Assembly (NCBI GenBank): GCA_017519205.1
Contig: JAFWSW010000109.1
Coordinates: forward strand, 1 to 54,121
Reading direction: 5' to 3'
DNA length: 54,121 nucleotides
From: Clostridiales bacterium
GTDB lineage: Bacteria; Bacillota; Clostridia; Saccharofermentanales; Saccharofermentanaceae
The position numbers were made by a program, and so were the translations under genes. Below the pieces are notes generated by a model. The model searched no databases. It was not told the origin of the DNA and was given only the letters and a program-made list of their open reading frames with translations. Shown one piece after another: positions 7,390 through 18,677 of this stretch (position 1 is the stretch's first letter; the number at the start of each line of letters is the position of its first letter).

Positions 7390-8151
7390 ATGGACGGCAA
7401 GACCGGAAGCAAAGGTTTTACCCGTTTGTCTTGGCGTAGCCGGTTTTGTCGGATCGCTTCACTTGCTGTTGCCTGCGCCGGTACACTGTTTTTGTTTATC
7501 CTGTTTTGTAGATATGAGGTGATGGTCTTCGGAATTACGGGGACCGTCTGCCTCCTTTTGTCCTCTTTGGCGGCAGCGCTTCTTTTCCGTGAATCGGAAA
7601 GACATGATACGATCTTTTCCATGATCATGGTCATTGCTGTTGCTTCTATCATCGTGATTTCCGTTCGTTCCCCGTGGGCGATCTCCTCGAAAAGCTCCCG
7701 GTCCTATGAGAAGAATATGAAGTATCTTTCCAAGAACCATTACTCCACGATCCTTTTCCCGGAAGAGCTTCCGAAGAGCGTATCCTCATATGATCTGAAA
7801 TTCCGCCCGGATGAGTATGTGCATGTATCGTTTTCATGCGATCCCGAGGATCTGAGAAAATATGAAGACGAAGCCCAGAGCATCTCGATCATCGGTCCGG
7901 TAGCACTTCCCGATGCGATGTCCGAGACTATGAACGACACGATCACCGCTCAGATTGCGGAAGCTTTTGACGTGGATAACGAGGAAGCAGGTATCTTCCG
8001 TCTGCAGTTTGCTTTTCCCGAGAACGTGGAAACGCACAGTCAGGCAAGGATCTATATCGTGTTCTGCGAATACGATCACGAACACCCTCAGACAGAAGCG
8101 ATCCTGATCGACGATGAGAGCGGCTGGGTCTGCTTTTCCAAGCTTTTCTGA
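7390..8151 (+). CDS. Hypothetical membrane protein (3 predicted N-terminal TM helices, soluble C-terminal half)
   Basis: ORF is open from 7351. ATG 7390 sits 5 nt after GGAGG 7380-7384. No family recognised. Confidence 0.5.
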   Translation: MDGKTGSKGFTRLSWRSRFCRIASLAVACAGTLFLFILFCRYEVMVFGITGTVCLLLSSLAAALLFRESERHDTIFSMIMVIAVASIIVISVRSPWAISSKSSRSYEKNMKYLSKNHYSTILFPEELPKSVSSYDLKFRPDEYVHVSFSCDPEDLRKYEDEAQSISIIGPVALPDAMSETMNDTITAQIAEAFDVDNEEAGIFRLQFAFPENVETHSQARIYIVFCEYDHEHPQTEAILIDDESGWVCFSKLF

Positions 8152-8240
8152 GATTTCTCCGAATACTTCTTCCCAGCCTAAAGCCCCGCTTGCTGCGAAA
8201 TACCCTTTTTTATCACGCAATATCTCCTCCGATAGGGCTA

Positions 8241-8270
8241 TTGACATATAGTTCAATACCAACTTATAAT
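8241..8270 (+). promoter_or_regulatory. Sigma-A type promoter for the padR operon
   Basis: TTGACA 8241-8246, 18-nt spacer, TATAAT 8265-8270. Inverted repeat ttcaatac / gtattg flanks the -10. Confidence 0.6.
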
Positions 8271-8344
8271 CAGTATTGTTGAATGTATAGTACTGAACAA
8301 AACATAACATATACATAAATTTCGTAAAAAGGAGGAAGTCAATC

Positions 8345-8662
8345 ATGAATGTTCAATTCAAAAAAGGCGTTCTGGATCTCTGTGTCCTGGCGATGCTCAA
8401 TGACAGCGACCGCTACGGATATGAACTGGCCAGCACGCTTTCTGAGATCATCATGATCTCGGATGGTACTGTGTACCCGCTTCTTCGCAAGCTCGCATCC
8501 GATGGCCTCGTGGCTTCATATCTTCAGGAGTCACAGAGCGGACCGCCGAGAAAATACTACAGTCTGACTGCTATGGGAAAGATCCGTCTTGCGGAGCTTC
8601 TCGAAGACTGGAACAACTTCACGGCAAGTGTAAATAAGATCGTAGGAGGGAAAAGCGTATGA
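8345..8662 (+). CDS. PadR family transcriptional regulator
   Basis: 105 aa. GTVYPLLRKLASDGLV winged-helix signature. Confidence 0.88.
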   Translation: MNVQFKKGVLDLCVLAMLNDSDRYGYELASTLSEIIMISDGTVYPLLRKLASDGLVASYLQESQSGPPRKYYSLTAMGKIRLAELLEDWNNFTASVNKIVGGKSV

Positions 8663-9489
8663 ATAAAAAAGAATATGTTTCTGCGCTTCGTGCGCAGTTG
8701 AAAAGACTTCCTTCCGATGACGTGGAGGAGATCGTAAAAGAGTTTGAAACACACTTCGATATCGGAGTGTCTGAAGGTAAGACCGAGAGCGAGATCGCAG
8801 CGAAGCTCGGATCTCCGGAGGAAGTCGCGAAGATCTATCTTGGTGATTCCGTTCCGGATTTCGATGTGGCTGCAGCCGGAAATGCCGCTGCACCGCAGTT
8901 CCCGATCATCCCGGTAAAGACAGGCATGGTCATCGACCGCGGCATCGGCCCGCAGACAGCGGCCGGATTCGCAGATCCCGTTCATGCAAAACCGATCGTT
9001 AACAACCCGCCGAAGGCGGAGCCGGCAGGTGCCGCTTTCGCACATACAGGTGCGAAAGCAAAGGAAGAGTACGCTGAGGTAACCCGTCAGGGAAAGAAAG
9101 ACTACCAGCTTCCGGATTATTCGGAGTATCCGAGTAAGGGCGGCAAGCATCCGGAGCCGGAGAAGAAGGAACATAATCTGGCATGGGCCATCCTGTTCAC
9201 GATCTTCGTATTCTTCCCGGTATGGGTACTCGCACTGGGTCTTCTGGTGCTTCTGATCGCGCTCCCGTTTGTACAGGGAATCTTCTCCGCACTTCTGTTC
9301 ACATGGATCCCGGGCATGTGCACCGGTGTCGCAGGAACAGTCTGCATGGCGATAAGCCTGGCATTCGCGGCGATCGCATTCCTCTTCGTGGCATACTTCG
9401 CCATCAAGGGATTTATCCTCGGAACAGTCCGCTATTTCCGCTACATCTTTAAGATCAACAGCGGAAGTGAGAAAGGAGGCAACGCATGA
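8659..9489 (+). CDS. DUF1700 (HAAS-type) membrane protein
   Basis: 276 aa. N-terminal KKEYVSALRAQLKRLPSDDVEEIVKEFETHF typical of DUF1700. P/A-rich linker. C-terminal multi-TM region. Overlaps the padR stop. Confidence 0.75.
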   Translation: MNKKEYVSALRAQLKRLPSDDVEEIVKEFETHFDIGVSEGKTESEIAAKLGSPEEVAKIYLGDSVPDFDVAAAGNAAAPQFPIIPVKTGMVIDRGIGPQTAAGFADPVHAKPIVNNPPKAEPAGAAFAHTGAKAKEEYAEVTRQGKKDYQLPDYSEYPSKGGKHPEPEKKEHNLAWAILFTIFVFFPVWVLALGLLVLLIALPFVQGIFSALLFTWIPGMCTGVAGTVCMAISLAFAAIAFLFVAYFAIKGFILGTVRYFRYIFKINSGSEKGGNA

Positions 9490-9926
9490 AAAACAGAACA
9501 GCAGTTGCTATCGTAATCATGGTCGTATGCTTCGCGATTTCCATCTCGTTCCTGTTCCTCAGTCTCGGATTCTATCTTCTTACCGGGACAAAAGAAGTCG
9601 CTGAACGTATCTACACCGGTGAATGGGATGATATTCCGGACAAGTTCAACGAATATATCGATGTCGGCGACAAGAGCGTAAAGATCGATGCAAAGGGACT
9701 GCACGTCGTCGTTGACGATCTCGGTGTCGATGTTGAGATCCTGGGCGTCAAGATCAAGACCAGGGATGAGGATGAGGCAAAAGCCAGAGAAGAAGCTGAG
9801 AAGCTTGAGGAAGAACTCAAAAAGATCGAAGACAAGAAGACCCCGGGGGATGAGGGGCCGGAGCATGGCAAGAAAGACCATGACAAAAAACATCATGACA
9901 AGAAGCCGGATGGGAAAGATTCTTAA
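9486..9926 (+). CDS. Small membrane-anchored protein with K/E/D-rich tail
   Basis: 146 aa. Overlaps the upstream stop (ATGA). One N-terminal TM helix. Third gene of the padR operon. Confidence 0.55.
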   Translation: MKNRTAVAIVIMVVCFAISISFLFLSLGFYLLTGTKEVAERIYTGEWDDIPDKFNEYIDVGDKSVKIDAKGLHVVVDDLGVDVEILGVKIKTRDEDEAKAREEAEKLEEELKKIEDKKTPGDEGPEHGKKDHDKKHHDKKPDGKDS

Positions 9927-9975
9927 CGGACTCTCTTTATAGAAACGGCATAGTCGGGAAAAGAAACTGAATGGG

Positions 9976-10009
9976 AAGAGGCTGTCTCTTTTGAGACGGC
10001 CTCTTTTCT
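9976..10009 (+). terminator. Rho-independent terminator
   Basis: aagaggctgtctc / tttt / gagacggcctctt followed by a T-run. Confidence 0.8.
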
Positions 10010-11869: not shown

Positions 11870-12493
11870 TTATTTGTTTCCGGGTTTCCAGGGCTTGGGG
11901 GAGAGGAGTGTGGTGCGGCCGATGTCGGGGAGGACGTCGTAGATGGAGCAGCCCATTCGGTTTTCAAAGTCTTCCTTGATGGCGAATGCTACTTCCCAGC
12001 CTTTGATGTATCCTTCCATGATGCCGTAGCGACGGGTGACGTCGACGAAGCGTTTTTCCAGGATGACGAATCCGTAGTCAGTGGCAAGTGCATCGCAGAG
12101 CTGGATCAGTTTGTCGTAGTCGTCCGCTTCGCATCCCAGGATATATTCCTTGATAGTTCTTTCGCTTTCGGTGTCGGGTTCATAGTTGAACTCATCCTTC
12201 ATGAGGAGATAGGAGTGGGTCATGCAGATCCTTGCTGCTTCATCCCAGCCCTTTTCCAAGCAATACTTGTACCCCTCGTAAACATGTGTGGGGATATTGA
12301 CGATGCCGACTCTTCTGCCGATGTCATGAAGCAGTCCGACGATATATGCTTTTTCAGGATCCATCGAGGGGATCTTTTCCGCGATGTTCCTGGCGGCGAG
12401 ACCTACATTTGCAGAGTGTTTCGTCCATGGTCCCGGATTCATTTCTCCGGCGATCTCAAGTTCATGTAATGCTTCTTCGACAGTCGGTAACAT
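11870..12493 (-). CDS. HD-domain phosphohydrolase family protein
   Basis: 207 aa. GLLHDIGR HD motif. The overlapping + strand ORF 11849-12469 has no recognisable motifs. Confidence 0.8.
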   Translation of the reverse strand: MLPTVEEALHELEIAGEMNPGPWTKHSANVGLAARNIAEKIPSMDPEKAYIVGLLHDIGRRVGIVNIPTHVYEGYKYCLEKGWDEAARICMTHSYLLMKDEFNYEPDTESERTIKEYILGCEADDYDKLIQLCDALATDYGFVILEKRFVDVTRRYGIMEGYIKGWEVAFAIKEDFENRMGCSIYDVLPDIGRTTLLSPKPWKPGNK

Positions 12494-12707
12494 AGTCGGG
12501 CTCCTTTTGAAGTGTTTTTCACTATACTAGCATAGAAGGCGGCTTTTTGCAGACGGCACTGCAAATAGGCATTTGTATTTCGAGGCGGGTATACTCGATT
12601 TCAAGGAAAAGTAAAGTTATAATTACTTTTATACGAGGGGGCGTAAATGGACTGTTCGAAGTAAAAGGCAGAACAGCTGTCGTCCCGAGTATGAAAGGAA
12701 ATGAAAA

Positions 12708-13928
12708 ATGGCAACGCTTTGCAGAAATTGTAATCATGCGCTTATATATTCACCTGAGATCCGTAAGGTGTACTGTACATATTGCGGCAGTGCTTTTGAA
12801 GCGGAAGAGGTCGAGTCCGAGGCGAAGAAATACAGAGAGAATGAGCGCGTTCTTACCCGCGGTGAGGTGTATGGCGACGATGAGGTGATCGATGAGTTCC
12901 TCGAAGCCTATGTGTACACATGCAGCGAGTGCGGCGGCGAGATCAAGATCCATGGAACGGAAACTTCCACGACATGTATCTACTGTGGTAATCCGAATGT
13001 GGTGTTCTCCCGTGTTGCAAAGGACAAGATGCCGGATGCGATCATTCCGTTTACTGTACCAAGAGCTCAGGCGCTTAATTCGATCCGTACGATCATCGAT
13101 CAGGCGGCGTTTCCGCCGGCGGAACTGAAGAATCTGAAAGTGGAAGATATCCGTGGAATCTATCTTCCATACTGGGTCGTAAGTGCGACTCACGAGGAGA
13201 CCGCGGTAGTCCAGATCGCAGTAAGCTCCGGTACGACAAAGTACAAATATGTAGGCCGTACGGGATTCATGAACATCAACAGCTTTCCGGTCGACGGATG
13301 CCGTATCCTTTCGGATGAGAGCAGCTCGAGACTGGAACCGTTTGATCTTAATGGAATGAAGAGATTTGACGAGGACTACCTTCTGGGATTCTATTCCAAC
13401 TCTTCCGACATCTCCTACGATGAACTGTATCTGGCAGTCGAAAGACGAGGAAAAGAGATCTTCGAAACAACGCTGAAGAAGGAGATGAAGTCCACCAAGA
13501 TCGTCGGTGAAGTACATGAGACATCGATTGCTGATAACTATCTGTATGCGATGTTCCCGGTATGGTTCGTGACATTCTGTCTGAACGGCCAGCCGCATAC
13601 CATCCTGGTCAACGGCCAGACAGGCAAGGTCGTGTGCGGTATTCCATACGATCGGAAGAAGGTAAGAAGGACGATGATCTTTTGGGGCACGCTCATCACG
13701 GCGGTAGGCGTCGGTGTTCTTTTCGGAATCCTTTATGCACTCGGATTTAGGGAACTTGGCGAGAAATCCGTACTCTCCGGGACGTGTGATTTCGTCTTGT
13801 CCGCATGTTTGATCTTCGGAACCGGCTGGCTGTTATACGGATTGGATAGGATGAAAAAAGTTAAGAAGCAGCTCGAACGTACACAGGCGGAGAATATGTT
13901 CCGCTTTGTAAAGAGAAGACAGGGGTAA
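12708..13928 (+). CDS. Double zinc-ribbon membrane protein, paralog 1 of 3 (unknown family)
   Basis: 406 aa. CxxC...CxxC at residues 5-26 and a second CxxC...CxxC (YTCSECGG...CIYCGNPN). Conserved IYLPYW, FPVDGC, FDEDYLLGFYSN and MFPVWFVTF motifs. Two C-terminal TM helices, then a basic tail. Confidence 0.85.
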   Translation: MATLCRNCNHALIYSPEIRKVYCTYCGSAFEAEEVESEAKKYRENERVLTRGEVYGDDEVIDEFLEAYVYTCSECGGEIKIHGTETSTTCIYCGNPNVVFSRVAKDKMPDAIIPFTVPRAQALNSIRTIIDQAAFPPAELKNLKVEDIRGIYLPYWVVSATHEETAVVQIAVSSGTTKYKYVGRTGFMNINSFPVDGCRILSDESSSRLEPFDLNGMKRFDEDYLLGFYSNSSDISYDELYLAVERRGKEIFETTLKKEMKSTKIVGEVHETSIADNYLYAMFPVWFVTFCLNGQPHTILVNGQTGKVVCGIPYDRKKVRRTMIFWGTLITAVGVGVLFGILYALGFRELGEKSVLSGTCDFVLSACLIFGTGWLLYGLDRMKKVKKQLERTQAENMFRFVKRRQG

Positions 13929-13933
13929 TTGAA

Positions 13934-14221
13934 ATGGTAACAGTAATCATTATCACATTCATTTTCGGTTTGCTCGCCGGAATCGGCGGAGTCTGCAATA
14001 TCATCGGCAACATGCTGAGAAAGAGAAATAACTTCGGTGACAGCCACGCGGACCCGCATACATATACGCAGCTGGTGACATTTACCGACTGCTCCGAGCG
14101 TATGTATCCGTCGGATAAATCAACTATGGAATATATCGGTAATCATCCTCCGAGAAAAGCTTCGTTCCCGACGGCGCCGCGAGGTGATGCGCCGGTGGAG
14201 AGCCCGAGGACACGCCGATAA
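13934..14221 (+). CDS. Small single-pass membrane protein, partner 1 (C-terminally shorter than partners 2 and 3)
   Basis: 95 aa. Starts 5 nt after the upstream stop. N-terminal TM. NNFGDSHAD and FPTAPRG motifs shared with the other two small ORFs. Confidence 0.65.
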   Translation: MVTVIIITFIFGLLAGIGGVCNIIGNMLRKRNNFGDSHADPHTYTQLVTFTDCSERMYPSDKSTMEYIGNHPPRKASFPTAPRGDAPVESPRTRR

Positions 14222-14294
14222 CAAAACGATGATCTGACTCGGGCAGAGAAGTTTCTGAGTCAGTGGGAGATAGAAGAAAAGGGAGGTATAGAAA

Positions 14295-15536
14295 ATGGCA
14301 ACACTTTGCAAGAACTGCAGTCATGCTCTGATCTACGATCCTAGCGTCAAAAAGATGCTGTGCACCACGTGTGGCAGTACTTTTAACGCGGAAGAAGTGG
14401 AATCTGAATCGAAGAAGTTCAGGGAAGACGAAAAAGTCAGAAGACGTGATGAAGTGTACGGGGACGACACTGATGAAGCTGTTGAGGAATACCTCGAGAA
14501 CTATGTCTATACCTGCAGTGAGTGTGGCGGCGAGATCGTGATCCACGGATCCGAGGCATCGACGAAGTGTGTCTTCTGCGGGAATCCGAACGTCGTCTTC
14601 TCGCGCATCTCGAAAGAGAAGATGCCGGAATATATTATTCCGTTCACTGTTACGAAAGAACAGGCGCTCTCGGCAATCAAGAGTAAGATCGCGAATTCGG
14701 TCTTCGTGCCGGATGAGATTAAGAATTTCCAGCCGGAAGATGTGCGTGGTATCTATCTTCCCTACTGGATCGTCGAGGCATACTATGATGAAGTCTGCGT
14801 GATCTCCAGCACAGTATCCCGGGGGAAAACCAGCACGACGATCTATTCGGGCAGGAGAGGAAATCTTCACATGAAGAAGTTCCCCGTGGATGGGTGTGCG
14901 ATCCTCTCAAATGAGAGTTCCGCGCGTCTCGAACCGTTCAATCTCCACGCGATGAAGCCGTTCGATGAGGACTATCTCCTCGGATTCTATTCGAACGCGT
15001 CGGATATCAATTATGAAGAACTCTGGCATGTACCTGCCGCGCGCGCGCAGAAGATCTTTGAAGAGGCCGCTCTGTCTGATGTGAGCGGATCCTCTCCCAA
15101 ACTCATTTCGGAATCGCATATGGTATCGGTACTGAATAACTACCAGTACGCGATGTTCCCTGTGTGGTTCGTGACATTTACTTACGAGGGAAAGCACAAT
15201 ACCATCCTGGTCAACGGACAGACCAACAAGGTCGTCTGCGGTCTGCCATGGAGAAAGCCTCTTTTCTGGGCAATGACGATCGGCATCGGATTGGCGCTGA
15301 CGTTCTTATCGTATTTCGCGTTCGAAGCACTGTTTAACATCATTCTTACAGCCGGTGCTTCAAGACGTTCCGGCAGTTCAAGAAATGACGGCAGCTCAAA
15401 GCTCATTGTCGGGATCGCGGTCGGTATATTCACGCTGTTTGCTACCGGTTATAAAAAGATGAAGAAAGTACTCAAGCAGATCGAACTGACGCAGTCGGCC
15501 AAGACATTTAACTTCGTAAAGAAGAGACAGGAGTAA
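14295..15536 (+). CDS. Double zinc-ribbon membrane protein, paralog 2 of 3
   Basis: 413 aa. Same architecture and motifs as 12708-13928. AAGGGAGG RBS. Confidence 0.85.
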   Translation: MATLCKNCSHALIYDPSVKKMLCTTCGSTFNAEEVESESKKFREDEKVRRRDEVYGDDTDEAVEEYLENYVYTCSECGGEIVIHGSEASTKCVFCGNPNVVFSRISKEKMPEYIIPFTVTKEQALSAIKSKIANSVFVPDEIKNFQPEDVRGIYLPYWIVEAYYDEVCVISSTVSRGKTSTTIYSGRRGNLHMKKFPVDGCAILSNESSARLEPFNLHAMKPFDEDYLLGFYSNASDINYEELWHVPAARAQKIFEEAALSDVSGSSPKLISESHMVSVLNNYQYAMFPVWFVTFTYEGKHNTILVNGQTNKVVCGLPWRKPLFWAMTIGIGLALTFLSYFAFEALFNIILTAGASRRSGSSRNDGSSKLIVGIAVGIFTLFATGYKKMKKVLKQIELTQSAKTFNFVKKRQE

Positions 15537-15540
15537 GAAG

Positions 15541-15945
15541 ATGGTAGAATTCTTTGCATTCATATTTGCCTGCGGACTCGGATTCGGTGTAGCATTCTGG
15601 ATCGCGGCATCGACTCTCAATAAATCCAATAATATAGGTGACTCCTATGCGGACACGACATACTATTCTTCCGGCGCGAATATTACTCACAAGGACAGAC
15701 TGACGAGTCAGGCCGCAATAGATGCATATGCGAATACGAGCGGATTTAAAAAGTCGACACTGCCGCTTGCTCCGAGGGGACTAAAGCCGGTCGAGAAAAC
15801 TGTGAAAAGAAGAGGTGGCCAGACTGAAGGGACAACGGATGAGACGCAGGTTCAGGAAGCGGCTGCTACGGTGGAAAAGAAGGTTAAGCCTCAATCCCCG
15901 AAAAGAGATCCGTCTGCTTTCCCGAGATCTTTCCACGATGTATAA
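15541..15945 (+). CDS. Small single-pass membrane protein, partner 2
   Basis: 134 aa. Starts 4 nt after the upstream stop. TM FAFIFACGLGFGVAFWIA. Motifs NNIGDSYAD, STLPLAPRG, C-terminal FPRSFHDV. Confidence 0.7.
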   Translation: MVEFFAFIFACGLGFGVAFWIAASTLNKSNNIGDSYADTTYYSSGANITHKDRLTSQAAIDAYANTSGFKKSTLPLAPRGLKPVEKTVKRRGGQTEGTTDETQVQEAAATVEKKVKPQSPKRDPSAFPRSFHDV

Positions 15946-15970
15946 ATAGAAGAAAAGGGAGATATAGAAA

Positions 15971-17203
15971 ATGGCAACACTTTGCAAGAACTGCAGTCAT
16001 GCTCTGATCTTCGATCCTGGTGTCAAAAAGATGCTGTGCACCACGTGTGGCAGTACTTTTAACGCGGAAGAAGTGGAATCTGAATCGAAGAAGTTCAGGG
16101 AAGAAGAACGCGTCAGAAGCCGTGACGAAGTGTACGGGACGGATAACACCGAAGTTGAAGAGAAATTCCTCGAGAACTATGTATACACCTGCAGTGAGTG
16201 TGGCGGCGAGATCGTGATCCACGGATCGGAAGCATCTACGAAGTGCATTTACTGCGGAAATCCGAATGTTGTATTCTCGCGCATTTCTAAAGAGAAGATG
16301 CCGGACTATATCATCCCGTTTTCCGTTACGAAGACACAGGCGATCAATGCGATCAAGAGAAAGATCGAGTATTCCCGCTTTATTCCGAAGGAGATCAGAG
16401 AGTTTGAGCCGGAAGATGTCCGCGGGATCTATATTCCGTACTGGATCGTTGAGGCCGATTTCGAAGGCGAATGTATCATTGAAAGCAAGGTATCGAACGG
16501 GAAGTCCACGTCGACTGTTCATACGAGAAAAAGGGGAGACCTGCATTTAAGCAAGTTCCCCGTGGATGGATGCGCGATCCTTTCCAATGAGAGTTCCGCA
16601 CGTCTGGAACCGTTCAATCCTAACGGTATGAAACCCTTTGATGAAGACTATCTTCTCGGATTCTATTCGAACGCGTCTGACATCAAATACGATGAACTGT
16701 GGAACGTTACGGCTGCACGGGCGAAAGAAATATTCGAGGTAGAGGCTTTGATGGATGTCAGAGGATCCTCCCCGAAGATCGTGGCGAGATCGCATAATCT
16801 TTCGCTCCTGAACAACTATAAGTATGCGATGTTCCCGGTGTGGTTCATCACCTTTACATACGCAGGAAAGCAACACACGATCCTTGTCAACGGACAGACA
16901 AATAAAGTCGTCTGCGGACTTCCGTGGAGACAGGATCTGTTCACGTGGATGATCGTCGGGATCGGCGCAGCACTGACGGTCCTGTCCTTCCTTGTGTTCA
17001 AGCCCGTGTTTTCGGTCTTTTTTAACACGGCGGCGAACTCGAAAAGCTCCGGAGAAGGTGCGAGCAAGATCCTGTTTTTTATCGGTGCTGGTATTGCCAC
17101 ACTGTTTATGACAGGTGTGCGGAAAATGAGGAGGGTCCTGAAACAGATCGAACTGACCCAGTCGACCAAGACATTTAACTTCGTAAAGAAGAGACAGGAG
17201 TGA
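15971..17203 (+). CDS. Double zinc-ribbon membrane protein, paralog 3 of 3
   Basis: 410 aa. Roughly three quarters identical to paralog 2 by eye. Same motifs. Confidence 0.85.
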   Translation: MATLCKNCSHALIFDPGVKKMLCTTCGSTFNAEEVESESKKFREEERVRSRDEVYGTDNTEVEEKFLENYVYTCSECGGEIVIHGSEASTKCIYCGNPNVVFSRISKEKMPDYIIPFSVTKTQAINAIKRKIEYSRFIPKEIREFEPEDVRGIYIPYWIVEADFEGECIIESKVSNGKSTSTVHTRKRGDLHLSKFPVDGCAILSNESSARLEPFNPNGMKPFDEDYLLGFYSNASDIKYDELWNVTAARAKEIFEVEALMDVRGSSPKIVARSHNLSLLNNYKYAMFPVWFITFTYAGKQHTILVNGQTNKVVCGLPWRQDLFTWMIVGIGAALTVLSFLVFKPVFSVFFNTAANSKSSGEGASKILFFIGAGIATLFMTGVRKMRRVLKQIELTQSTKTFNFVKKRQE

Positions 17204-17210
17204 GGCTATA

Positions 17211-17582
17211 ATGGATATCTTTGCTTTCATTTTTGCTGCCGGACTCGGATTCGGAGTTGCTTTCTGGATCGCATCGACCATGCTTAATAACTCAAACAAT
17301 ATCGGAGATTATCATGCGGATCCGAAGCATTATTCCGCCTCGGTGCATTTCACAGAGAAGTTGGAGATTTCTGCCAGGACGGCAAGAGAGGGGTGTATCG
17401 GCTATAGAAAGTCGACACTTCCGCTCGCGCCGAGAGGATCGGCTTTGGTCGAAAAGCCGAAGAATATCACCGGCTCCCAGGAGACTGAGCCGGAAGCTGA
17501 CACAGTATCAAAACCGGAACCTCAGAAAATTCCGCCAAGGAAAAACTCCTCCGGTTTCCCGAGACCTTTCCACGATGTATAA
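17211..17582 (+). CDS. Small single-pass membrane protein, partner 3
   Basis: 123 aa. Starts 7 nt after the upstream stop. TM FAFIFAAGLGFGVAFWIA. Motifs NNIGDYHAD, STLPLAPRG, C-terminal FPRPFHDV. Confidence 0.7.
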   Translation: MDIFAFIFAAGLGFGVAFWIASTMLNNSNNIGDYHADPKHYSASVHFTEKLEISARTAREGCIGYRKSTLPLAPRGSALVEKPKNITGSQETEPEADTVSKPEPQKIPPRKNSSGFPRPFHDV

Positions 17583-17618: not shown

Positions 17619-18677
17619 ATGCCTTTTCGTATAGTTGAAGGTGACATCACGAAACTTCAAGTGGATGCCATCGTGAATGCGGCAAATGAGTCGCTTCTCG
17701 GCGGTGGCGGTGTTGATGGTGCGATCCATCGTGCGGCGGGCCCTCGTCTTCTGGAAGAGTGCCGGACACTTCACGGATGTAAAACAGGTGAAGCGAAGGT
17801 GACGCTCGGTTATGACCTTCCCGCAAAGTATGTCATCCATACTGTCGGTCCGATCTGGCGGGGCGGAAACTACGGAGAAGAAGATCTTCTTCGTTCCGCA
17901 TATAGGAATTCCCTTTTTTCAGCGCTCGAAAAGAACTGTGAATCGGTGGCTTTCCCGATGATCTCCGCAGGTGTCTACGGCTATCCGAAAGACCAGGCGC
18001 TGGAGGTCGCGGTCAGCACGATCCGTGCTTTTCTTGATGAACACGAGATGGATGTGACCCTCGTGATCTTCGACCGTGAAAGCTTCCGGTTCGACGGGCG
18101 TCTTTATTCCGAGATCTCAGGGTTTATCCGTAATACATATGACGATGGCAAAGGACAGAGAAACCTCCTGTATGACATGGAGAGTGCTTTTGAAGTAGAC
18201 GAGTGCATCTGCGAGGAGCGCGCCGAAGTACGAAAAGAGATCCGGCATGCAAAGAGTATGATGGGCGCATCCGCGATGGCAGCCCCGATCCAGATGCATC
18301 TTCAGGACACCGGTCTTAAGGAAGCACTGGAGAACCTGGATGAGAGTTTCTCGCAGGCGCTTCTCCGCATGATCGATGCACGCGGCATGAAGGATTCCGA
18401 CTGCTATAAGAAAGCGAATATCGACAGAAAACTTTTCTCGAAGATCAGATCCGATGTGAACTACCGGCCCAGCAAGCAGACGGTGCTGGCATTCGCGGTG
18501 GCGCTGGAACTGGATCTTTCCGAGACGGAGGCATTCCTTAAGAAGGCCGGCTTTGCACTCTCGCATTCCAATAAAGCCGATGTCATCGTAGAGTATTTTA
18601 TCTCGCACAGAAACTATGACATGTATCGCATCAATGAGGCGCTTTTCGCGTTTGACCAGAATCTGCTCGGTGCATAA
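17619..18677 (+). CDS. Macro-domain (ADP-ribose binding/hydrolase) protein with C-terminal HTH-like domain
   Basis: 352 aa. [23 protein letters not shown] macro signature. C-terminal ~110 aa resembles an XRE-like HTH module ([15 protein letters not shown]...[16 protein letters not shown]). Confidence 0.8.

Follow-up and report, generated by a model that had tools for sequence, protein, structure and literature searches.

What kind of system is encoded by a gene pair that specifies one membrane protein with two zinc ribbons and one small membrane protein, and that occurs three times in a row? Such an array lies at positions 12708-17582 of a stretch of 54,121 nucleotides from a Clostridiales bacterium (contig JAFWSW010000109.1, assembly GCA_017519205.1), which was analysed as a whole and is hereafter called the window. 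A preliminary description, made from the letters alone, regarded the pair as an uncharacterised module and did not recognise the central domain of the large protein. We find instead that the large protein can be assigned with confidence, from its sequence, to the YdjG/SamG superfamily in its zinc ribbons, central domain and first transmembrane (TM) helix; for this superfamily interaction, localisation and genetic data have been published (PMC8581546; 10.64898/2026.02.06.704340; PMC11237479). What is new here is the small partner, together with a two-TM architecture at loci devoid of an SPFH gene; the superfamily to which the large protein belongs was already known. To our knowledge, SamG/YdjG has been studied so far in Bacillus subtilis only, where it was treated as accessory to the envelope-stress system of PspA and SPFH.

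In that organism YdjG has been described as comprising two zinc ribbons, an uncharacterised domain and a TM segment, and its central domain is said to have an NTF2-like fold related to that of YpeB (PMC11237479). YdjG interacts with YdjH, and recruitment of PspA and of the SPFH protein YdjI to the membrane depends on both (Scholz et al., PMC8581546). The three genes have since been renamed samGHI in a 2026 bioRxiv preprint, whose authors propose that SamG and SamH form a complex that senses membrane stress and is held in check by SamI (10.64898/2026.02.06.704340).

All six open reading frames (ORFs) of the three consecutive pairs that had been described were found, on the + strand. Large gene 1 (12708-13928, 406 aa, profile score 611) belongs to the SamG/YdjG family subtype with two TM helices and a basic tail, and to the lineage with short-tail partners; it is followed by small partner 1 (13934-14221, 95 aa), which consists of an N-terminal TM helix, the juxtamembrane motif RKRNNFGDS and a short tail ending in ...PTAPRG..PVE. 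Large gene 2 (14295-15536, 413 aa) is the copy used for the structure model, and its partner (15541-15945, 134 aa) carries a TM helix, the motifs NKSNNIGDS and LPLAPRG..VEK, and a long tail of low complexity that ends in FPRSFHDV. Large gene 3 (15971-17203, 410 aa), a more recent duplicate of gene 2 with 72% identity, precedes small partner 3 (17211-17582, 123 aa), of the same long-tail type as partner 2. The gaps between large and small gene are 5, 4 and 7 nt, respectively. Identity ranges from 52 to 72% among the large paralogs and from 34 to 43% among the small ones, and direct DNA repeats run through the array with periods of ~1595 and ~1676 nt. The repetition of three pairs is far beyond chance, and what has been triplicated in tandem is a module of two genes. 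Among the related loci that we compared with the window (labelled L001 and so on), most have one copy of the module, some have two, and three are found in the window only.

For the comparison with Bacillus, the pspA-ydjGHI locus of a B. subtilis-group genome was located using the published ydjG primer (PMC8581546) as a pattern. BLASTP aligned a window large protein with B. stercoris YdjG at E=1e-35, with 26% identity over 351 aa, the alignment spanning both ribbons, the central domain and the first TM helix. Using hhalign, a 40-sequence profile matched YdjG over 303 columns with a probability of 99.9% (E=3e-36). The comparison with B. subtilis YdjG that had been suggested beforehand was therefore the right one. 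All residues that are invariant across the Bacillus, Enterococcus, Vibrio, Comamonas and Tsukamurella homologs, including eight cysteines, are also present in the window proteins. The TM helix of YdjG aligns with TM1 of the window proteins, directly after the central domain, and these proteins then add a loop, a second helix (TM2) and a tail. They represent a Clostridia-specific subtype, marked by TM2 and by the conserved basic tail. At 50% identity the superfamily comprises 6467 clusters (E<=1e-3), or 1578 at E<=1e-30. Its core has no Pfam or NCBIfam model, either for YdjG itself or for the window proteins, which is why hundreds of homologs are labelled 'hypothetical'.

The layout that had been proposed for the large protein, with two C4 ribbons, an acidic linker, a set of central motifs, two C-terminal hydrophobic helices and a ...FVKKRQE tail, was found in full. 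Residue numbers and coordinates within the gene refer here to copy 2. Zinc ribbon 1 (14295-14399, residues 1-35, with C5, C8, C23 and C26) is joined by an acidic disordered linker (14400-14498, residues 36-68, predicted local distance difference test (pLDDT) <50) to zinc ribbon 2 (14499-14606, residues 69-104, with C74, C77, C92 and C95). The central alpha/beta domain (14607-15254, residues 105-320) was modelled with a pLDDT of ~80-90 (AF2). It is followed by the TM1-loop-TM2 hairpin (15255-15452, residues 321-386), the most variable region, whose TM2 does not occur in canonical YdjG, and by the conserved basic C-terminal tail (15453-15533, residues 387-413, ending in ...LTQSAKTFNFVKKRQE). The eight ribbon cysteines are present in all three copies, invariant in 40 homologs and kept across the five lineages. 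The superfamily-invariant central residues found in the window proteins are P111, P116, P139, G152, Y154, P156, W158, G230, P289, W291, N307, G308 and P318. The array had been said to have conserved ends and variable middles; this does not describe the paralogs well, since the least conserved part is the TM hairpin (19-41% identity), against 54-72% in the central domain, 66-94% in zinc ribbon 1, 81-94% in zinc ribbon 2 and 48-85% in the C-terminal tail.

Scans of all six proteins against Pfam, NCBIfam, PHROGs and PADLOC gave no match for the central domain or for the small proteins; the zinc ribbons were the only parts matched, mostly below curated cut-offs. A sequence search of the PDB with the large protein returned nothing, Foldseek of the copy-2 model against the PDB gave no match better than E=0.1, and hmmscan of the large proteins gave no PepSY or YpeB match at E<=1. 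Foldseek against BFVD matched the copy-2 model to only two giant-virus proteins, Edafosvirus A0A3G4ZSZ8 (E=2.5e-8) and Yasminevirus A0A5K0UBJ7 (6.8e-7), both annotated 'DnaJ-like subfamily C member 3' and both of obscure function; judging from the models, they may be SamG-like proteins in Klosneuvirinae. Domain fusions were also sought in long relatives of up to 684 aa, and none was informative, the extra length being just an expanded disordered linker (in some >270 aa). Four such relatives, P0155, P0156, P0158 and P0175 (L093 5001-7055), carry a low-complexity insert of 150-270 aa between the zinc ribbons. The long-linker form of L093 has a small partner cut to 63 aa, with a TM helix and the motif KSNDFGD.

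The small gene is the most constant companion of the large one. Throughout ~90 related loci, a homologous small TM protein begins -4 to +7 nt after the large gene wherever downstream DNA exists, with one exception, L009, whose second copy is itself truncated. The pairing is kept in very divergent members, including the 684-aa long-linker forms and sequences from a bioreactor metagenome, and the smallest divergent partners (53-63 aa) hold little beyond the TM helix and the motif. When neighbours were clustered, the small partner was the only consistently conserved one (68 of 85 loci with a filter of >=90 aa). The proposal that the pair acts as a unit is thus borne out by a coupling that is essentially obligate. 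Members of the small family share an N-terminal TM helix (GxGFGLxxW), a juxtamembrane segment L-x-K-S-N-N-x-G-D-S...Y...FT.R.DR and a P.G..V(R/E)(R/K)L..EE motif, followed by a variable, highly charged tail. A profile search delimited a family of 293 clusters; in the 120 matches listed, all are unnamed and have neither a Pfam domain nor a TPM fusion, and the Pfam and NCBIfam scans did not name the small proteins either. That the small partner is an unnamed family, as had been thought, therefore holds. By their TM helix and KSNNxGD motif, these proteins appear to be a new family, unnamed in annotation pipelines.

How the two genes are joined points to coordinated synthesis. The final codons of the large gene, AGA-CAG-GAG or GGG before the stop, form a Shine-Dalgarno sequence 8-11 nt upstream of the small ATG. 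These overlap regions (...RQE/...RQG codons, CAGGAG/CAGGGG) lie at 13914-13936, 15522-15543 and 17189-17213 on the + strand in the three pairs. Because the Shine-Dalgarno sequence sits within the last codons of the large gene, the two genes are likely to be translationally coupled, and because these RQE/RQG codons serve twice, the conservation of the tail may partly reflect a constraint at the nucleotide level.

The charges flanking the helices suggest how the proteins may be inserted. In the large protein, 1.6 K/R residues before TM1 and 3.5 after TM2 fit an N-in/C-in arrangement, from which we infer that both ends are cytoplasmic and that nearly the whole protein faces the cytoplasm. The charge pattern of the small protein is N-out/C-in, with ~29 charged residues in the tail, as would be expected of a single-pass membrane protein with a cytoplasmic C-terminus. 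The pair would then present almost nothing to the outside of the cell, and this speaks against a role at the surface or as a receptor.

The two proteins also diverge together. Among 73 distinct pairs, the divergence of the small TM helix followed that of the large TM hairpin with a partial r of 0.52 after controlling for the central domain, a value reached in none of 500 permutations, and its correlation with the zinc ribbons was r ~0. The small juxtamembrane segment tracked the central domain best (r=0.79). These correlations suggest an intramembrane contact between the small TM helix and the large TM hairpin.

The genomic context separates the window from its relatives outside Clostridia. 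In all five of the lineages examined there (Bacillus, Enterococcus, Vibrio, Comamonas and Tsukamurella), the YdjG homolog lies beside an SPFH gene, and in Enterococcus a TPM-domain gene follows the SPFH-YdjG pair. Searches with phmmer for SPFH (YdjI), TPM (YdjH) and PspA found no homolog in the 54-kb window, nor at any of 84 related loci of gut and rumen origin, and the clustering of neighbours of the related loci gave no SPFH (Band_7_1) gene either. This comparison of loci shows that the window clade, a gut and rumen branch of Clostridia, has apparently lost the SPFH link and gained a different, obligate small membrane partner. Two observations concern the edges of this picture. After the SPFH-YdjG-like pair of Tsukamurella comes a gene (L092 6089-6523) for a protein of 144 aa, which, with its N-terminal TM helix and cytoplasmic tail, has the architecture of the small partner and no evident sequence similarity to it. 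In L076 (7491-8543) and L072 (7497-8546), a third gene overlaps the stop of the small ORF and encodes a SamG-like protein of 350 aa without TM2 or basic tail. As this is the canonical-length form, these genomes hold both SamG subtypes side by side; L076 and L072 have no SPFH gene either.

Within the clade, two old lineages of the module can be told apart by their partners, which have short tails (93-97 aa) or long tails (123-135 aa). Orthologs of gene 1 with 93-97-aa partners are found in L001, L009 and L011, and within the long-tail type a younger duplication gave rise to window copies 2 and 3. The copy-2 and copy-3 units share 90% identity over their first 300 nt (14270-14569 and 15946-16245; ribosome-binding site, zinc ribbon 1 and linker) and ~72% over the rest, which suggests that gene conversion has recently taken place between them. 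The ratio of nonsynonymous to synonymous substitution rates (dN/dS) was 0.11-0.20 for the large genes and 0.19-0.41 for the small ones, with 0.32-0.34 for small partner 1 against its orthologs, values that are rough since dS was often >1. In the long-tail small genes the TM and juxtamembrane core gave 0.11-0.19 and the tail 0.26-0.69. Both genes are under purifying selection, so that the small ORFs are real genes, a point that the preliminary description had left to be checked, and the array is not of the diversifying kind to which it had been likened, dN/dS being <1 throughout.

With moderate confidence, we read the module as a variant of SamG-SamH that does without SPFH, its two membrane proteins serving as a sensor or scaffold that faces the cytoplasm. 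Translational coupling would provide the large and small proteins in a fixed ratio; the two would then associate in the membrane, the small TM helix on the large TM hairpin and the juxtamembrane segment on the cytoplasmic domain. Together they would form a joint sensor or scaffold facing the cytoplasm, analogous to B. subtilis SamG-SamH and working with no linked SPFH, PspA or TPM component, and the variable tails of the small proteins could be paralog-specific docking sites for soluble clients. Among the roles that had been listed beforehand, stress sensing thus fits best, and defence or a surface function fares poorly, for reasons given below and above, respectively. We infer the physical interaction from indirect evidence, namely the obligate adjacency of the genes, their translational coupling and the covariation of the TM segments, and the stress-sensing or recruiting function from homology and genomic context.

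Several points weigh against this interpretation. The partners that define SamG, namely the SPFH protein SamI, the TPM protein SamH and PspA, are encoded at none of the loci of the clade and nowhere in the 54-kb window, so that any analogy of function has to be extrapolated across 26% identity; the genome may carry SPFH or PspA genes elsewhere. The molecular function of SamG itself is poorly defined. Lastly, the covariation of the TM segments could stem from rate heterogeneity that such segments share, and not from contact.

A first alternative is that the small ORF is a degenerate SamH, reduced to the second TM helix and tail of the TPM partner, so that the module would be SamG-SamH minus the ectodomain. 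The small gene does occupy the same position, directly downstream, and encodes the same architecture of a TM helix with a low-complexity cytoplasmic tail. In hhalign, an 82-sequence profile of the small family fell on YdjH residues 164-233 (the second TM helix and juxtamembrane region) with a pairwise E of 0.008, but the probability of this match was 4.7%, and 1.6% with a three-sequence profile. No TPM domain occurs in any of the 120 matches listed from the 293 small-family clusters, nor is there a KSNNxGD motif after the second TM helix of the Enterococcus TPM protein. We consider this origin rather unlikely.

The ribbons themselves raise the possibility of a membrane-tethered regulator, in which they would bind DNA or RNA as TFIIB-type ribbons do, with the small protein controlling release or activity, and thereby control transcription directly. 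The window proteins give weak matches to the Pfam models Zn_Ribbon_TF (TFIIB) and DZR, below the curated cut-off, and Bacillus YdjG passes the Zn_Ribbon_TF cut-off. A regulatory, DNA-binding role has been suggested for the YdjG ribbon by Popp et al. (PMC9239133), and loss of SamI leads to global transcriptional changes, which have been attributed to SamGH signalling (10.64898/2026.02.06.704340). C4 ribbons are generic, however, and bind proteins as well as nucleic acids; the pair has no helix-turn-helix (HTH) or other DNA-binding domain, neither a protease nor a release mechanism is encoded nearby, and no regulated target gene is conserved beside the module. Such direct control is distinctly unlikely. 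An anti-sigma factor was also considered and rejected, there being no ZAS motif and no sigma-factor gene nearby.

Two further possibilities arise from the gene that follows the array. A Macro-domain gene (O-acetyl-ADP-ribose deacetylase-like; 17619-18677, + strand), whose product has a weak C-terminal HTH_26 match, begins 36 nt after the last small gene, and since no terminator lies in this gap it may be co-transcribed with the array. A Macro gene follows the module in the syntenic clade of the window and, independently, in the very divergent L099 (2415-3158); in L022 (3520-4584) it lies upstream of the module on the opposite strand. In L067, 4 nt separate the stop of the small partner from the start of a gene (7586-10009) for a TIR-domain protein of 807 aa. 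The pair might accordingly be a self-contained, SPFH-independent signalling module of Clostridia with an output tied to NAD/ADP-ribose chemistry, the small tails being paralog-specific docking or modification sites. A Macro-domain gene is found near the module in 12 of 74 informative loci, recurrent and non-obligatory, and a TIR gene directly after it in one. This linkage is too sparse to build on and leaves a residual hint, and we hold such an output to be very unlikely. In Vibrio (L090 1-861), a TIR-domain gene lies ~3 kb from the SPFH-YdjG pair.

The same neighbours, including the Vibrio TIR gene, could be taken to speak for anti-phage defence or abortive infection, in which the pair would sense infection and act with NAD/ADP-ribose enzymes, tandem paralogs broadening its specificity. 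The paralogs are indeed in tandem, but the sparse linkage, the purifying rather than diversifying selection and the minimal extracellular exposure predicted above all count against this role. Moreover, PADLOC matches were confined to the zinc ribbons (best E=3e-4), with none for the small proteins or the Macro gene, and no relatives were found in 2.9 million viral contigs. The module lies in a stable housekeeping synteny, murB-rapZ-whiA-PadR-HAAS ... Macro-glutamine synthetase-GGDEF/EAL-Ddl (D-Ala-D-Ala ligase). Defence is thus most improbable. A holin-like or membrane-permeabilising pair, to which a weak match of the copy-1 TM region to Pfam Phage_holin_3_6 might point (E=0.048, below cut-off), is hardly credible, as this match is not significant and is limited to hydrophobic helices, the context holds neither an endolysin nor a prophage, and the large protein differs from holins in its extensive, conserved cytoplasmic domain.

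As to expression of the array, a weak sigma-70-like match (TAGGCA-18-TATACT; 12566-12595, + strand) in the 214-nt gap 5' of large gene 1 is a possible operon promoter; it is a consensus match only, and promoter-type matches in this region are no more frequent than in its shuffles. A terminator scan found no convincing terminator within the array and no terminator-like site in its short intergenic gaps, so that the six genes may form a single operon, possibly with the Macro gene included. An Rfam scan of the window gave no RNA family. Upstream, by 2.8 kb, lies a same-strand operon of a PadR gene (8345-8662), a gene for a HAAS-domain membrane protein (8659-9489) and a 146-aa ORF (9486-9926), each kept in 7 related loci; PadR-HAAS pairs have been described as envelope-stress signalling modules (PMC11237479). 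Between an AMP-binding ligase gene and the array there is an HD/HDOD-domain gene on the - strand (11870-12493), at a position where no gene is called in the otherwise syntenic L001.

The Clostridia branch is large and abundant in rumen and gut metagenomes. Having no SPFH gene, it is a natural experiment on what SamG-type proteins do alone. The practical gain is better annotation for thousands of 'hypothetical' proteins, and the conceptual gain is moderate unless the linkage with Macro and TIR genes proves functional.

Among known systems, E. coli PspB-PspC is a conceptual analogue only, an inner-membrane pair proposed to sense envelope stress and to signal cytoplasmically, the analogy having been drawn by the SamGH authors (10.64898/2026.02.06.704340); it has no sequence or domain similarity to the module, and the window encodes neither PspA nor PspF. 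The YdjG-like proteins of Enterococcus, Vibrio, Comamonas and Tsukamurella, named 'hypothetical protein' or 'TFIIB-type zinc ribbon-containing protein' in RefSeq, share the same invariant residues with the window proteins at 21-28% identity over 76-82% of the query, but their genes lie directly downstream of an SPFH gene, and they have one C-terminal TM helix and no KSNNxGD partner. In comparison with the B. subtilis pspA-ydjGHI locus, the window module has no pspA, SPFH (ydjI/samI) or TPM-domain (ydjH/samH) gene nearby. Its type of partner is a single-pass protein of 63-160 aa, which differs from SamH/YdjH in having no TPM ectodomain and no detectable similarity to it, and this type of module occurs in one to three tandem copies, unlike the SamG locus. 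The closest likeness is to SamG/YdjG itself. At 26% identity, and with TM2 and the basic tail (...FVKKRQE) added in the window proteins, the two have the same order of parts, from zinc ribbon 1, linker and zinc ribbon 2 to the alpha/beta domain and TM helix; in both the soluble part is cytoplasmic, as predicted here for the window proteins, and the product of the next gene is a membrane protein whose cytoplasmic tail is of low complexity.

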